The notes: generated by a model from the sequence alone, not told the origin. DNA of 64,000 nucleotides from an uncultured bacterium (GCA_949286705.1 CASEDF010000006.1:181809-245808); one strand, 5' to 3'; shown: positions 13,884 to 32,709, numbered from the stretch's first letter. Numbers and translations are program-made.

Positions 13884-14914
13884 AAACTCAACTGGAAAAT
13901 ATTTACAAAAATGCCGCACAAGATCTTGAAAAAGCTTCTTCAATCAGCGACATTGAAGAAATAAGAGGTAAATATTTAAGCCGTAAAGGCGAATTTAACG
14001 AAATAAAAAAAGGCTTAAAAGATTTGTCCGACGCGGATAAAAGAATAATCGGGTCTTTGGCAAATGAAATTACCCGAAAGCTTGAAGACGCTTTAAAAAG
14101 TAAATATGATGAGTTTTATAAAAAAGAGCTTAATGAAAAACTTGAAAAGGAAAAACTTGATGTAACTTTGCCGGGCAAATTCACACCCGTCGGGCACACA
14201 CATCCTATTACATCAACAACAAACGAAATTGTATCAATTTTTCAAACTCTTGGATTCTCGGTTGTAAGCGATGAGTTATCTCCAGAGGTGGAAACGGAAT
14301 ATTACAACTTTGATATGCTGAACGTTCCGAAAGACCATCCTGCACGTGATGTTCAAGATACTTTTTACACAAAACTTGCTAAAAATGTTGTGTTAAGAAG
14401 TCAGACGTCAGGCGCGCAAATTCACGCAATGGAAGGCAAAAATCCTCCGATAAGAGTTATTTCACCGGGCAGAGTTTACAGAAACGAAAACATTAATGCA
14501 CGCAAAAACAACTTTTTCCATCAAATTGAAGGCTTATACGTTGATAAAGGCATCACTTTCGGGGACTTAAAGGGTGTTTTAAACGAATTTATCAGAATCT
14601 ACTTCGGTGCAAGCCGTCCGACAAGGTTCAGAAGCAGCTTTTTCCCGTTCACGGAACCTTCTGCCGAAGTTGACGTACAATGTATTATGTGTGAAGGCAA
14701 AGGCTGCAGAACATGCTCCGGCACAGGCTGGCTGGAAATATTAGGCGCAGGCATGGTTGACCCGAATGTTTTACGCGGTGTCGGAATTGATCCGGATGTT
14801 TATTCTGGTTTTGCGTTCGGTATGGGCATTGAAAGACTTGCAATGCTAAAATACGCAATCGACGACATCAGATTATTCTTCAACGATGACGTAAGATTTT
14901 TGGAACAGTTCTAA
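13880..14914 (+). CDS. pheS: Phenylalanine--tRNA ligase alpha subunit
   Basis: 344 aa. HPARDVQDTFY, FRSSFFPFTEPSAEVD, GFAFGMGIERLAM class II motifs. Confidence 0.95.
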   Translation: MKTQLENIYKNAAQDLEKASSISDIEEIRGKYLSRKGEFNEIKKGLKDLSDADKRIIGSLANEITRKLEDALKSKYDEFYKKELNEKLEKEKLDVTLPGKFTPVGHTHPITSTTNEIVSIFQTLGFSVVSDELSPEVETEYYNFDMLNVPKDHPARDVQDTFYTKLAKNVVLRSQTSGAQIHAMEGKNPPIRVISPGRVYRNENINARKNNFFHQIEGLYVDKGITFGDLKGVLNEFIRIYFGASRPTRFRSSFFPFTEPSAEVDVQCIMCEGKGCRTCSGTGWLEILGAGMVDPNVLRGVGIDPDVYSGFAFGMGIERLAMLKYAIDDIRLFFNDDVRFLEQF

Positions 14915-14930
14915 CTATATTAAAATCATA

Positions 14931-15013
14931 ACAAATACCTTATAATTATTTTCTCGACGACGCTACCGCCTCCGGCTCCGCTATTGTCTCAAAAACAATT
15001 ATAAGGTATATGT
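14931..15013. repeat. Hairpin element copy A (conserved 38-nt apex on an 18+ bp stem)
   Basis: Stem ATACCTTATAATTATTTT / AAAACAATTATAAGGTAT. Apex CTCGACGACGCTACCGCCTCCGGCTCCGCTATTGTCTC. Lies between convergent pheS and the SIS gene. Confidence 0.8.
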
Positions 15014-15031: not shown

Positions 15032-16087
15032 TTACTTAACCACTTTATCCAGCCCGTGGGGTTTATCGACGTTTCTGTGGAGTTTCATAGCCACCTCAAG
15101 CGCCAGAAGCTGAATCATTACAGCCACACAAAAATATTTAACAATTTTGCTTTCGCAATCAATGTTTATATTGAATGTTGAATTAATTTTTACGTTTTTA
15201 TTGCCGAGAATACAAATAGGCGGGCGATATTCCTCTTTAATTTTATTCAAATTTTTTGTCGCAATATAGCTTAAATCATCCACCAAAATATAAATAAGCA
15301 AGCCCTTATTATTCAAAACCGCCACATGCCCGTGCATAAATTCACCTAAAATGTGGGAGGTAACATTCAAATAAGATGTTTCTTTAATTTTCAACGCTGC
15401 TTCTTTTGCAAGCGCATAGGATATTCCGTCCGCACACACAACAATGTTTTTATATTTGGAAACAAATCTGCCGAGCGTTTTAATTTTCGGACGTAATTCA
15501 TAGGTTTTATCAATATATTGAGGAATAGATATTACTTCGTTAACGTAATTTTCAACATCAATACCCTTTAATTTTGCAAACTTTAAGGCAAGAAGGGTTA
15601 CGCACATCATCTGAGAAGTCAAGGATTTAGTTGCGGCAATGCTTCTTTCCACACCGGCATGGCAGCAAACCTTGTAGTCAGAAGCATTCCAAATTGTAGA
15701 ATCTTCTTTGTTCGTGATGCATAAGGTTCTGACACCGAATTGTTTTGCTTTAATCAAAGCTTTATTAGTATCCGAGGTTTCGCCTGATTGGGTTATAAAG
15801 ATATAGAGCATATTTTCGGCATGCGGAATAACAGCTTTAAGTAAAAATTCGCTGGAATAAATTGCACGCGCCTCAAGATTAGCAATACTGCCGAAAACAT
15901 CCGCGCCGTACCTTGCGCAATGATAGGAAGAACCGCTTGCGACAAAGACCACCTGTTCAATCCCTTGAGGAACATCTATCAGGATTTCCTCATTATCGCC
16001 GATATACGTATTTACAAGGTGTTCAAGGATTTTTGACTGTTCAAAAATCTCGCGTTCCATGCTGCTTTTTCTTTTTTTAAAAAACAT
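15032..16087 (-). CDS. SIS-domain sugar-phosphate isomerase/aminotransferase-like protein (GlmS isomerase-domain type, no glutaminase domain)
   Basis: 351 aa with two SIS repeats (VFVASGSSYHCA..., ITQSGETSDT, VVCADGISYALAKEAALK). Confidence 0.7.
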   Translation of the reverse strand: MFFKKRKSSMEREIFEQSKILEHLVNTYIGDNEEILIDVPQGIEQVVFVASGSSYHCARYGADVFGSIANLEARAIYSSEFLLKAVIPHAENMLYIFITQSGETSDTNKALIKAKQFGVRTLCITNKEDSTIWNASDYKVCCHAGVERSIAATKSLTSQMMCVTLLALKFAKLKGIDVENYVNEVISIPQYIDKTYELRPKIKTLGRFVSKYKNIVVCADGISYALAKEAALKIKETSYLNVTSHILGEFMHGHVAVLNNKGLLIYILVDDLSYIATKNLNKIKEEYRPPICILGNKNVKINSTFNINIDCESKIVKYFCVAVMIQLLALEVAMKLHRNVDKPHGLDKVVK

Positions 16088-17565: not shown

Positions 17566-17613
17566 TATCTTCTCCTTATCGTATGATAATTATAGCATAA
17601 AAAAACATAAAAA

Positions 17614-17686
17614 ATAAAGATATAAGGTTTCGAAACAATAGCGAAGCCGGAGGCGGGAGCGTCGTTGAGAAACTTTATATCTTTAT
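17614..17686. repeat. Hairpin element copy B (inverted orientation); also the terminator of the XRE gene
   Basis: Stem ATAAAGATATAAGGTTTC / GAAACTTTATATCTTTAT around an apex homologous to copy A. On the minus strand it is followed by tttttatgttttttt. Confidence 0.8.
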
Positions 17687-17688
17687 AA

Positions 17689-17919
17689 TCATATCTTATT
17701 TTTCGGGACTGCCTTATAAAGGTCATCCAACGGAATATTCAAAGCAGTTGCTATGTCATATACTATAAAGGCTGAAGGGGTTTGATTTCCTTTTTCTATT
17801 TTTCTGATGGTATTTTCGCTGACATCAATCAACTCGGCAAGTTTATTTTGAGATAAATTTTTTCTTACCCTTTCTGCTCTTATATTACTTGCTAAAATGT
17901 TTAATCTGGTATCTCTCAT
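17689..17919 (-). CDS. XRE-family HTH transcriptional regulator (76 aa)
   Basis: MRDTRLNILASNIRAERVRKNLSQNKLAELIDVSENTIRKIEKGNQTPS is an HTH_3 motif. The upstream part of ORF 17689..18135 has no protein-like features. The ATG has no SD and lies 7 nt after an AATAAT box. Confidence 0.8.
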   Translation of the reverse strand: MRDTRLNILASNIRAERVRKNLSQNKLAELIDVSENTIRKIEKGNQTPSAFIVYDIATALNIPLDDLYKAVPKNKI

Positions 17920-17937
17920 TTGTTTTATTATTGCATA

Positions 17938-17966
17938 TTGACAAAATCTTATCAATACACTATAAT
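17938..17966 (+). promoter_or_regulatory. Perfect sigma-70 consensus promoter, divergent from the XRE gene
   Basis: TTGACA (17938-17943) - 17 nt - TATAAT (17961-17966), pointing at ORF 18023..18208. Confidence 0.6.
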
Positions 17967-18022
17967 ATCGCATATCGATATTATAATAACGCAAAAAGCT
18001 ACAATCAGATAGGAGATGATCT

Positions 18023-18208
18023 GTGTCAAAAGAAGATGTAAACAAAATATTGAATGAAGCATGCGATGTAATGCTTTTGTTTTCTATATTTAAAAAGGCA
18101 CTGGATGCAGATACGGGAGCATACAGTCCGCTCACGGAAATTATTGATAAAAAAATAACGAAATTGTTTAACGATATTGACGAATATGAAACAAAACTCT
18201 ACTTTTAA
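18023..18208 (+). CDS. Small acidic hypothetical protein (61 aa)
   Basis: GTG start 7 nt after AGGAGA. Downstream of the consensus promoter and divergent from the XRE gene. No recognisable motif. Confidence 0.4.
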   Translation: MSKEDVNKILNEACDVMLLFSIFKKALDADTGAYSPLTEIIDKKITKLFNDIDEYETKLYF

Positions 18209-25876: not shown

Positions 25877-27625
25877 ATGCGAAACAGAAACAGGGAAAAT
25901 GAAAAAGAAAAAAGAATGAAAAGCTTTGACAGAATTCTGGGGCTTTTGCAGGTTTTCTTTATATGTTTTGCAGCTTTTCTTGCGATTTATTTATTTATTG
26001 TTCAGATTATTGACGTGGGCAAATATCGCGCCAAAGCCAGAAATCAGCGAATAAACAGAAGTTTTGTGATGCGCGGTGATATTTATGACAGAAACGGCAT
26101 AAAACTTGCAACCGATAAAGTTTATTCGGATGTTTATGCACACCCTGCAAATTACGATTCATCAGAAGAAGATCTGGCTAAAAAACTTGCACCAATATTA
26201 AAAATGCCGTACGGTGAATTATTGAATATGCTTAAAAAACCTGGGCCTGTTATTACCATTAAAAAGGATATTGATAAAAATACCGCAAAAGAACTTGCCA
26301 AATTGCATTTGAGAGAAATCAGCATGGGTAAGAAAAATACCCGTACATACCCTCAAGGAAACCTTGCGGCGCATGTTTTGGGGTATTATAATTTTGACGC
26401 GGATATTGCAAACGGAGTTGAATATACGGCAAAAGACAAACTTGAACACGTTGAACATGCCGTGAGATATCAAAGAACCCGCGACGGCAAAATTATTTAT
26501 GATTTTACGACAGACCCCGTTGCAACAACCACAAACCCTAAAGGACAGGATATAACTTTAACTATAGATGCCGCAATCCAGCACGTATGCGAAAAAGAAT
26601 TGCAGAAAATGATTGAAGAAAAAGAGGCTCTTAGAGGCACCGTAATTGTTATGAATCCTAAAAACGGTGAAATCCTTGCATATGCGGTTTATCCGACTTA
26701 CGACCCGAATAATTACAAAAAAGCCAGTGAAATTCAGATTAAAAACTGGACTTTAACCGATGTATTCCCGCCCGGATCAACATTTAAAATCATTACAGTT
26801 TCAAGTGCAATGGAACTCGGCAAAATAAACGAACACACCGAAATTCTTGACACCGGTAAAACATCAATCGGCAAATGGGAAATCAAAAACTATGACTATA
26901 ACGTCCATCCGTATCCCGGGATGATATCTCTTGAATATTTGTTTGAACACTCAAGTAACATCGGCTCCATAAATGTAGCCAAAACAATGACTTCTAAAGA
27001 ATTTTATGACATGCTTAAAAAATTCGGCTTTGGACAAAGATCCGGAATAGATTTACCCGGAGAATCCGCAGGACTGCTTCCTGCATGGCATAAATGGGAT
27101 AAAGGTATTCATGCGACAATGGCTTACGGTTACGGGACTTCGGTTTCCGCAATGCAAATGGTGAGTGCCGTATCAGCACTGGCAAATAACGGTGTCAGAG
27201 TAACCCCTCATATCATAAAATACCCTCAAGAAGAATATGATCAAAAAATTCACTACACTCAAGTAGTTTCGCCGGAAACAGCAAAAACAGTTACAAAACT
27301 TCTGGCCGAAAGTGTTAATAACGGAAAATCCGTCATAAAAATGGATAAATATAATGTCGCGGCAAAAACCGGTACTTCAAATAAACCAAAAGAAGGCGGC
27401 TCTGGTTATACAGGTATGTCCTACACCTCAACAATAGGCTATCTTCCGGCAACTGACCCGCAGGTTTTGATTTATGTAATGATTGACAGTGCAAGAGTCG
27501 GTGCAATTTGGGGCAACACGGTTGCAGGACCCGTTTTCCATGAAGTTGCCGAACAAACCGCAAGAATTATGAACCTGAAACCTGATAAACAGCCTAAGAA
27601 AAAGGAGACTACTAATGAAACTTGA
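25877..27625 (+). CDS. Class B penicillin-binding protein (FtsI/PBP2-type transpeptidase)
   Basis: TM anchor, then STFK (PPGSTFKI), SSN (HSSNIG) and KTGT (AAKTGTS). SD GAGGTG favours ATG 25877 inside ORF 25862..27625. Directly upstream of murE. Confidence 0.85.
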   Translation: MRNRNRENEKEKRMKSFDRILGLLQVFFICFAAFLAIYLFIVQIIDVGKYRAKARNQRINRSFVMRGDIYDRNGIKLATDKVYSDVYAHPANYDSSEEDLAKKLAPILKMPYGELLNMLKKPGPVITIKKDIDKNTAKELAKLHLREISMGKKNTRTYPQGNLAAHVLGYYNFDADIANGVEYTAKDKLEHVEHAVRYQRTRDGKIIYDFTTDPVATTTNPKGQDITLTIDAAIQHVCEKELQKMIEEKEALRGTVIVMNPKNGEILAYAVYPTYDPNNYKKASEIQIKNWTLTDVFPPGSTFKIITVSSAMELGKINEHTEILDTGKTSIGKWEIKNYDYNVHPYPGMISLEYLFEHSSNIGSINVAKTMTSKEFYDMLKKFGFGQRSGIDLPGESAGLLPAWHKWDKGIHATMAYGYGTSVSAMQMVSAVSALANNGVRVTPHIIKYPQEEYDQKIHYTQVVSPETAKTVTKLLAESVNNGKSVIKMDKYNVAAKTGTSNKPKEGGSGYTGMSYTSTIGYLPATDPQVLIYVMIDSARVGAIWGNTVAGPVFHEVAEQTARIMNLKPDKQPKKKETTNET

Positions 27626-32600: not shown

Positions 32601-32613
32601 AAATAATCAATTT

Positions 32614-32688
32614 AAAGCAGGTAATCAGTTTTCAGACGACGCTCTCACCTCCGGCTACGCTATTGTCTTCAAACTAATTACCTGCTTT
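32614..32688. repeat. Hairpin element copy C
   Basis: Stem AAAGCAGGTAATCAGTTT / AAACTAATTACCTGCTTT. Apex TCAGACGACGCTCTCACCTCCGGCTACGCTATTGTCTTC. Immediately after ilvD. Confidence 0.8.
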
Positions 32689-32709
32689 TACAAAAATATA
32701 TAAGGTCAT

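Follow-up and report, generated by a model that had tools for sequence, protein, structure and literature searches.

A dispersed hairpin repeat family with a conserved loop and copy-specific paired arms in Candidatus Gastranaerophilales

Three hairpins among housekeeping genes

The stretch of DNA analysed here, referred to as the window, is 64,000 nucleotides long and corresponds to C6:181809-245808 of a 1.85-Mb genome in 41 contigs (G000); its source group, Candidatus Gastranaerophilales, is represented by metagenome-assembled genomes (MAGs) from the gut. Three copies of a hairpin, termed A, B and C (Table 1), lie among housekeeping genes of the window, their neighbours being pheS, a SIS-domain gene, gatB, an XRE regulator, ilvD and the gene for an Fe-S protein. 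Copy A occupies the spacer between the convergent pheS (stop at 14914) and SIS-domain gene (stop at 15032). The start of copy B coincides with the stop codon of an XRE-type HTH gene (17689-18135, minus strand), gatB lies 45 nt downstream of the copy, and a T-run follows the hairpin on the minus strand. Copy C starts 10 nt past the ilvD stop, and 19 nt separate its end from the following gene, which encodes an Fe-S/CCG-domain protein. A composite transposon built from the inverted copies A and B was considered and rejected, the intervening genes being the SIS-domain gene and gatB.

The pattern GACGACGCT-N4-CCTCCGGCT-N-CGCTATTGT matches the window at 14956-14987 (+), 17635-17666 (-) and 32635-32666 (+), with 0, 1 and 0 mismatches, respectively. 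These are its only matches in the whole window when up to one mismatch is allowed, and 100 shuffles yielded none, which bears out the three copies that an earlier, sequence-only reading of this DNA had placed here. The 31-nt apex likewise occurs three times in the window, where 0 occurrences are expected by chance.

The arms of copy B are TAAAGATATAAAGTTT / AAACCTTATATCTTTA and those of copy C AAAGCAGGTAATCAGTTT / AAACTAATTACCTGCTTT. Direct reading agrees with the earlier description of window arms that are specific to each copy and carry one A/C mismatch each, and gives these arms a length of 16-18 bp. All six strands of copies A-C fold far better than shuffles (z -5.3 to -8.0), and the strand complementary to the ACGACGCT form, on which the mismatch becomes G.U, folds better by 10-12 kcal/mol; copy A, for example, reaches -23.8 kcal/mol on the plus strand and -36.2 on the minus strand.

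Table 1. Coordinates of the hairpin copies and their parts within the window.
Feature	Position	Strand	Basis or remark
Copy A, whole hairpin element	14931..15013	+	covariance model, G000:C6:196739-196821, 86 bits
Copy A, left arm ATACCTTATAATTATTTT	14935..14952	+	pairs with 14992-15009, 17/18, one A/C mismatch
Copy A, apex core, 31 nt, ACGACGCTACCGCCTCCGGCTCCGCTATTGT	14957..14987	+	flanks CTCG (14953-14956), CTCA (14988-14991)
Copy A, right arm AAAACAATTATAAGGTAT	14992..15009	+	direct reading
Copy B, whole hairpin element	17609..17691	-	covariance model, G000:C6:199417-199499 (-), 86.4 bits
Copy B, apex core ACGACGCTCCCGCCTCCGGCTTCGCTATTGT	17635..17665	-	pattern match
Copy C, whole hairpin element	32610..32692	+	covariance model, G000:C6:214418-214500, 80.5 bits
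Copy C, apex core ACGACGCTCTCACCTCCGGCTACGCTATTGT	32636..32666	+	pattern match

Anatomy of the hairpin and covariation of its stem

The element is a hairpin of about 80 nt. Sequence conservation covers its apex and the inner ~12 bp of stem; in the outer ~10 bp only the pairing is conserved. Its consensus is about AATTATTTT-CTCG-[31 nt]-CTCG-AAAAYAATT, and an alignment of 61 distinct copies from the genus, anchored on the core, is free of gaps. The window had first been described as showing a conserved apex on a copy-specific stem; the shared apex stands, but in the consensus alignment conservation runs on into the inner stem.

The YTCR motifs on the two sides of the core form a conserved 2x2 pyrimidine internal loop (C/T, T/C) with one covarying closing pair, and this pair, next to the core, is G-C in 39 and A-T in 18 of the 61 copies. 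Beyond the internal loop come about 20 further pairs, of which the first ~9 are near-constant (TTTTC / GAAAA, then ATT / AAT) and the outer ones are free to vary in sequence while pairing is kept. Stem lengths cluster at 18-24 bp and are not the uniform 18 bp once ascribed to every copy. The A/C mismatch is present in all three window copies, but in only 17 of the 61 genus copies and 22 of 48 copies from other genera, the site being A-T or G-C in the remainder. Its position is fixed, the ninth from the 31-nt core.

Pairing of the stem is supported by covariation. Within genus g1 both sides change in 20 of the 21 stem pairs, paired cells make up 90.6% of the total, and covariation scores 0.574 as against 0.158 in shuffles (0/500 reach the observed value) and 0.13-0.14 in slid controls. 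An independent set of copies from other genera is 92.6% paired and scores 0.827 against 0.201 in shuffles, again with 0/500 attaining the observed value; over both sets the slid controls range from 0.13 to 0.21. The suggestion of the sequence-only reading, a structured motif under selection for pairing, holds as far as pairing is concerned; either selection or arm-to-arm gene conversion may be what keeps it.

The base pairs that RNAfold places inside the apex show no covariation, and half of the copies have one of these pairs broken, which makes a sequence-conserved 31-nt loop the best description of the apex. Outside the fixed mismatch site, A.C:G.T counts are only 15:12 and 20:12, and wobble asymmetry was discarded as a strand indicator.

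Variants of the apex are lineage-specific. That of genus g1 reads ACGACGCT-CYCR-CCTCCGGCT-C-CGCTATWGT and that of genera g20 and g25 A(A)CACGCTCCCGC(C)-(T)CTGCTC-C-CGCTATCGT. All genera keep ACGCT...CGCTAT.GT, with the pyrimidine-rich form on the same strand, and the apex includes a tandem octamer, GCTCCCGC-N3/4-GCTCC(C)GC. Subfamilies of copies have stems in common.

Copy number and distribution

The source genome contains about 8-9 matches to the apex, and 8 intact and 2 decayed copies of the element. The sequence pattern finds 1-24 copies in 10 of 22 congeners, 0 in the other congeners, and none in 19 other genomes of the family and order. Across the order, a covariance model derived from 28 distinct copies detects the element in 16 of 151 genomes, which belong to 5 of 44 genera and to a single Gastranaerophilales family, and copies per genome run from 0 to 30 or more. 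Among 185,579 species genomes the exact pattern is confined to Gastranaerophilales. In all, the copies number well over 100, which removes the earlier concern that only the three window copies might exist.

Viral contigs and phage and plasmid collections gave no match to the element, and a scan of JGI metagenomes with a looser pattern produced nine chance matches in GC-rich or unrelated contigs, none with hairpin flanks. Rfam 15, applied to the window at gathering threshold, returned no match except one tRNA; at E<=1, five loci gave only chance-level matches, away from the hairpins. A search of the literature on Gastranaerophilales pilins or repeats found nothing relevant.

All of the genomes compared are MAGs, in which palindromes and repeats are prone to assembly error, yet the same structures recur across independent assemblies. 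Orthology was judged by BLAST of the flanks, and copy counts include related copies. One 81-nt copy is identical, together with at least 45 nt on each side, in L161 (G010, genus g1) and L167 (G111, genus g20), an identity across assigned genera that could reflect either bin contamination or recent transfer.

The whole hairpin behaves as one unit

Comparison of orthologous sites shows that the unit is the whole hairpin of about 80 nt, present or absent as one piece. The hairpin at the copy A site is also found in G014 and G013, and G002 has the same stem with its loop reverse-complemented. Seven congeners have no apex at this site: G012 and G011 carry an unrelated long hairpin, G005 and G021 a GC-rich terminator, and G004, G010 and G006 a spacer of 0-18 nt. 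A stem without an apex was found at the orthologous copy A site in no genome compared. The unrelated hairpin in G012 and G011 (TAAGACGTTAAGTGATTAAGAC...GTCTTAACGTCTTA type; L075, L077) fills exactly the spacer taken by copy A, and spacers between convergent genes seem to swap palindromes.

Other sites extend the comparison. At C2:~145489 the source genome has 15 unrelated nt, and a full hairpin stands there in G014, the flanks of which are ~99% identical, and in G013. Two comparisons of pilin leaders show the whole hairpin absent together with neighbouring sequence, indicating replacement of a patch and not simple insertion. All of these filled and empty pairs are replacements of larger patches, with no clean single insertion among them, and whole hairpins have been gained, lost or replaced between close relatives. 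The copy at C2:113-191 of G000 and its orthologue in G012 (96% identical flanks) share the same inner stem, but their outer stems differ and their loops are opposite.

The stems of the element are unlike the native terminators of G000, which consist of an A-tract, a GC-rich stem and a T-tract. In a decayed copy at C6:56618-56699 the stem is kept and the apex has eroded in place, and in the copy at C1:~26060-26185 a different, multi-copy element of 68 nt is nested in the apex. This ~68-nt element (..GCTGAAGGGCTTTGCGCAGGCAAAGACCGTAACGCCGTTTCATGCGAG..), at C1:26076-26150, occurs elsewhere at C6:165255, C6:139650, C6:66412, C1:121178 and C3:66508; the hairpin at the orthologous site in G011 is uninterrupted.

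Inversion of the loop

Orthologous hairpins frequently differ in the orientation of the loop. At C1:173349, G000 and G014 are related by a clean loop inversion with identical stems and ~99% identical flanks. At site A the loop is inverted between G000 and G002 and the A/C mismatch moves with it. The C18 and C2 sites, the C1:26144 site and the pilin site at C5:79341 have loop inversions too, and conserved flanks in genus g20 enclose copies of either orientation. All told, a flip was found at about 6 of 9 orthologous sites and at none of the three co-directional sites having orthologues (copies B, C and L012/13).

The arms record related events. At the C18 site the left arm of G000 and the right arm of G013 carry the same stem variant, with loop orientation equal, a pattern that implies two nested flips with different crossover points between these genomes. 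Sibling copies in G153 and G146 differ by doubly compensated changes (GG/CC, AA/TT, TA/TA) and are otherwise identical. One copy, L199 (G146:C56:13545-13746), has arms of ~45 bp, its left flank being an inverted copy of its right flank; its sister copies have that flank on one side only.

A separate difference was noted about 60 nt to the right of the flipped hairpin at C1:173349. There, at C1:~173440-173490, a stretch of ~45 nt bounded by TAGGGAA...TTCCCTA is almost wholly different between G000 and G014, in surroundings that are ~99% identical.

Constraint on the core

Where flanking coding DNA is 79-86% identical, orthologous apexes agree at 29-30 of 31 positions, inner stems at 21-24 of 24 and outer stems at 15-22 of 24; over all 15 orthologous pairs the ranges are 27-31/31, 21-24/24 and 11-24/24. 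Orthologues also have site-specific apex variants in common, such as a T in GGCTTCGC at copy B and CCTACGG at C1:173349, and inheritance is therefore mainly vertical. A core of ~55 nt, made up of the 31-nt pyrimidine-rich loop and the inner ~12 bp of stem, that is held more tightly than the neighbouring genes is not what selfish decay would give, and concerted evolution within genomes is insufficient on its own, since a related consensus is kept in all genera. Old copies with an intact core are unusual for selfish repeats and point to a function at the level of the host.

Genomic placement and the prepilin leaders

Intergenic copies start 0-21 nt past a stop codon, and at convergent sites the spacer is filled on both sides. 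The sense strand carries the pyrimidine-rich form at all five independent co-directional sites, which comprise 10 genome instances, a bias (p ~0.06) that is no more than suggestive.

Other copies are found in genes. These leader copies lie in the 5' part of prepilin-type paralogs (..AFTLAEVLITLGIIG..), pointing either way and leaving the reading frame open, and are read as ..FLDDALTSGSAMVSE.. or ..FRDHSGAGGESVVEK.. according to orientation. They are many in G002, G007, G012 and a further MAG from the group, BRZ_E__bin153, and there is one in G000 (C5:79341). The source genome encodes ~76 prepilin-type paralogs (AFTLAEVLITLGIIG[IV]VAAMTIPTL). Read back from FTLAE, the pilin frame is free of stops over a median of 64.5 codons, compared with 6 and 4 for the two alternative frames. 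An SD-ATG mini-ORF carrying a poly-G tract marks the limit of this open stretch; its ATG is in frame at G10 (~10 genes) and out of frame at G9 (~40 genes). A second type of leader carries a poly-C tract (..SDSRPPP..).

The pilin leaders are mosaics of several small palindromic repeat families, GTAG-type REPs included, which occur in frame in both orientations. Examples are found at C1:250345, C4:205350 and C5:18315, and the repeats include VILNLFQDL / EILKRVQDDK, the GTAG-REP 'VGRHYYADRK' and CFARQRAQNDKN. The hairpin family is one tenant of this refuge for in-frame repeats, in a leader that would be cleaved off. Some pilin genes have a duplicated AFTLAE block around an insert (..AAFTLAEGATHVDMSDNIRRVAFTLAEVL..); KGF/AFTLAE duplications in the leaders were rejected as target-site duplications, unequal recombination between paralogs explaining them equally well.

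Two further hairpin repeat families were noticed in G000. One, GTTCACTYTTTCTTTTTR-[catcgcwa or its reverse complement]-..., numbers 10 copies, among which the loop is found either way round, and the other, CAGCGTTTTCTTTCTCTTTT-cctcgccaa-..., numbers 5; at two loci they lie ~250 nt apart. Sites of the two families include C1:121378/121630, C4:45777/46020, C3:498, C3:11656, C4:88317, C5:103413 and C6:18434.

Models for the origin and maintenance of the family

The reading we favour, with a probability of about one half, is that the family is a REP-like dispersed palindromic repeat whose core is under selection and whose arms are kept complementary by recombination between them. The two arms of each copy would recombine as inverted repeats, a crossover flipping the loop, and gene conversion or heteroduplex repair would copy a change from one arm to the other. 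We infer such arm-to-arm conversion from the flips and the compensated differences. It would account for arms that are complementary within a copy and diverge between copies, and also for a fixed A.C site that has become A-T in part of the family and G-C in another part. For the loop there is no matching segment from which it could be converted, and its conservation would therefore need selection. Most likely the loop serves as a single-stranded recognition site for a trans-acting factor, which might be a host RNA- or DNA-binding protein or a putative enzyme that spreads the element. Transcribed after stop codons, the hairpin would probably act as a 3' barrier or terminator-like structure, by analogy with REPs. 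Weighing against this reading are a copy number well under that of classical REPs, the intact core of individual old copies, a Y1 gene whose presence does not follow that of the family, and the absence of any transposase, target duplication, conserved end or clean single insertion among the sites compared.

The strong constraint on the core also fits a host cis-regulatory RNA that is not actively mobile, a 3'-UTR or intercistronic hairpin in which a C/U-rich loop on a ~22-bp stem is read by a protein or RNA. The reader might be Rho or a different factor that binds C-rich sequence, the stem might be a substrate of RNase III, or CCUCC might pair in the manner of an anti-SD, with an effect on termination, mRNA stability or translation of neighbouring genes. 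Purifying selection on the core at orthologous sites, the tight position 0-21 nt past stops, a loop that is pyrimidine-rich on one strand across genera, a constant stem length of about two helical turns and the T-run after copy B all speak for such a role, as does the sense-strand placement of the pyrimidine-rich form at the 5/5 co-directional sites, with no flips where orthologues exist. That said, the 5/5 bias reaches only p ~0.06, and orientation is scrambled at about 6 of 9 orthologous sites, including sites between divergent genes, which are not 3' UTRs. The mismatch on the sense strand is a destabilising A.C, whereas the antisense strand, with G.U, folds 10-12 kcal/mol better. Moreover, most copies are without a U-tract, many sit in translated leaders in either orientation, species of the same genus lack the family, and Rfam has no match to it. 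On balance, we consider a purely cis-regulatory RNA unlikely, while giving it appreciable weight as the foremost rival of the REP-like reading.

The behaviour of the arms can also be read as hairpin templating, in which a structure-specific nuclease or recombinase recognises the loop, once a hairpin or cruciform has been extruded, and nicks the stem a fixed distance away; one arm would then be rebuilt from the other by resolution or fold-back synthesis, as at the flip/flop hairpin ends of parvoviruses and poxviruses. Such rebuilding would explain loop inversion, compensated arm changes and copy-specific outer arms together. It would suit the frequent flip/flop with variable crossover points, the doubly compensated sibling differences in G153/G146 and the different outer stems at one site in G000 and G012, and the conserved mismatch, at its fixed distance, could set the choice of strand. 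Ordinary RecA-type or template-switch recombination between 20-bp inverted repeats, however, explains both flips and conversion with no need of a dedicated system, and the extension of the L199 arms to ~45 bp, which would fit templating, can also be explained by recombination between two oppositely oriented copies. No candidate enzyme was found, and the single-stranded or hairpin intermediate is hypothetical. An element rebuilt from its own hairpin in this way is, in our judgement, improbable.

A bolder form of the same idea is a putative structure-specific system that would read the loop together with the fixed A.C/G.T mismatch and cut or exchange the stem strands, with flips, templating of the arms and dispersal without conserved ends as the outcome, and possibly with shuffling of the 5' cassettes of the ~76 prepilin paralogs. 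This is a long shot. If true, it would amount to a mobile or recombining DNA element defined by its loop and not by its termini.

The sequence-only reading had itself offered a small element targeting the loops of existing hairpins, and a ~31-39-nt insertion into pre-existing hairpins such as terminators, attractive for the common apex on differing stems, the terminator-type positions and a YTCR flanking the core on either side as if a tetraloop had been duplicated over 4 bp, is by now largely refuted and very improbable: orthologous comparisons of three kinds turned up no stem-only site, conservation takes in the inner 12 bp of stem, native terminators look different, the decayed copy keeps its stem as the apex erodes in place, and YTCR, being near-uniform over the copies and often unequal between the two sides (it is complementary, AGAA/TTCT, in two copies), is part of the element and not a duplication.

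If the REP-like reading with recombining arms is right, stems or ends need not be what defines an interspersed palindrome in bacteria; the conserved loop would presumably be the recognised part, with arms that co-evolve within each copy. In a compact natural setting, the family displays loops that flip recurrently between inverted repeats of 20 bp, and because the flip-flop occurs on the time scale of strain divergence, gut metagenomes could serve to measure it directly. Such flips could also mislead genome assembly and the typing of strains. The leaders cleaved from a hyper-expanded, phase-variable family of pilins emerge as a refuge for in-frame repeats. Only the existence of an enzyme dedicated to reading the loop would make this a new kind of biology, and practical importance is modest since the organism is uncultured.

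Comparison with known systems

REPs are defined as palindromes of 20-40 bp with a conserved stem of 8-9 bp or more, a loop of 4-5 nt and an unpaired GTAG/CGTC tag; they lie between convergent genes, <20 bp from both ORF ends, beside the upstream ORF of unidirectional pairs, or within genes at N-termini (PMC3733652). The hairpin family resembles REPs and BIMEs in being made up of dispersed short palindromes, found <20 nt past the 3' ends of genes in convergent or co-directional arrangement and in some ORF 5' ends, with a lineage-specific consensus, variable copy number and, likely, transcription as 3' hairpins; its placement 0-21 nt past stops and in leader ORFs is that of REPs. It departs from them in architecture, with ~80 nt, a variable, AT-rich stem of 18-24 bp without sequence conservation and a conserved loop of 31 nt, and in number, with 1-30 copies per genome, far fewer than classical REPs. 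Nor does it have a conserved unpaired GTAG/CGTC tag at one end, since the outer ends of the copies vary. The motif CGTCG is found inside the genus-g1 apex (reverse strand) and is lost in g20 and g25, where the motif is ACACGCT; membership among CGTC-tagged REPs was rejected, since the motif is not kept across genera and the architecture is wrong.

A link to a RAYT/IS200-type transposase was also rejected: one Y1 gene adjoins a copy, but it has other cognate REPs and there is no co-occurrence. Y1_Tnp is present in 10 of 22 congeners and uncorrelated with the hairpin family, G002 having 24 copies and no Y1 gene. The RAYT-like Y1 gene of G000 (C2:200-850, outside the window) is flanked by GTAG-GTCGGCTTTACCAAGCCGAC repeats and not by the hairpin family. 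A similar hairpin lies inside the coding sequence of this gene (..NVGLVKPTY..). In the RAYT version of G013 and G014 (L137, L138), GTTGGGCATACTTGCCCAAC is found in the flank as well as within the gene, so that the repeat outside and the hairpin inside covary, and G012 has the same site without the RAYT gene.

Insertion elements and terminators provide other points of reference. MITEs have conserved terminal inverted repeats that match an IS, and target-site duplications; termini of the hairpin family vary and no direct repeats were seen at its junctions. Intergenic junctions yielded no convincing target-site duplication, and neither a conserved terminus nor an associated transposase was found. 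Intrinsic terminators, with a GC-rich stem, short loop and 3' U-tract, are a poor match as well, stems here being AT-rich, loops 31 nt long and a T-run confined to a minority of copies such as copy B and G000 C2, and a scan for the terminator consensus called none of the three window copies. Like Rickettsia palindromic elements (RPEs) and in-frame intragenic MITEs, these palindromes survive in ORFs because the frame is kept and stops are absent (PMC10969869). RPEs are ~100-150 bp long, conserved in sequence throughout, and reside in unrelated housekeeping genes of Rickettsia (PMC10969869), whereas the ORF copies of the hairpin family are confined to prepilin leaders and share them with several other repeat families.

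The flipping of the loop has parallels of its own, the shared feature being a loop between short inverted repeats that inverts recurrently, independently of phylogeny, with the stem unchanged. Small hairpin-loop inversions between short inverted repeats have reportedly been catalogued in chloroplast non-coding DNA; these plastid inversions concern one-off neutral hairpins, whereas the hairpin family is multi-copy with a conserved loop. The ITR hairpins of parvoviruses flip and flop as well, the viral cases lying at the ends of linear DNA and needing a known nickase. Structure-based recognition is a feature of integron attC sites and of the subterminal hairpins of IS200/IS605, and as in these a conserved helix imperfection could mark the strand. 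In attC sites the base of the stem is conserved and the middle variable; the pattern of conservation in the hairpin family is the reverse, and no integrase, TnpA or cassette context was found around it. Taken together, the family is of a known kind, that of REP-like interspersed palindromes, and what is unusual about it is the conservation of the loop and not the stem, the rapid flip-flop of that loop and its in-frame residence in prepilin leaders.
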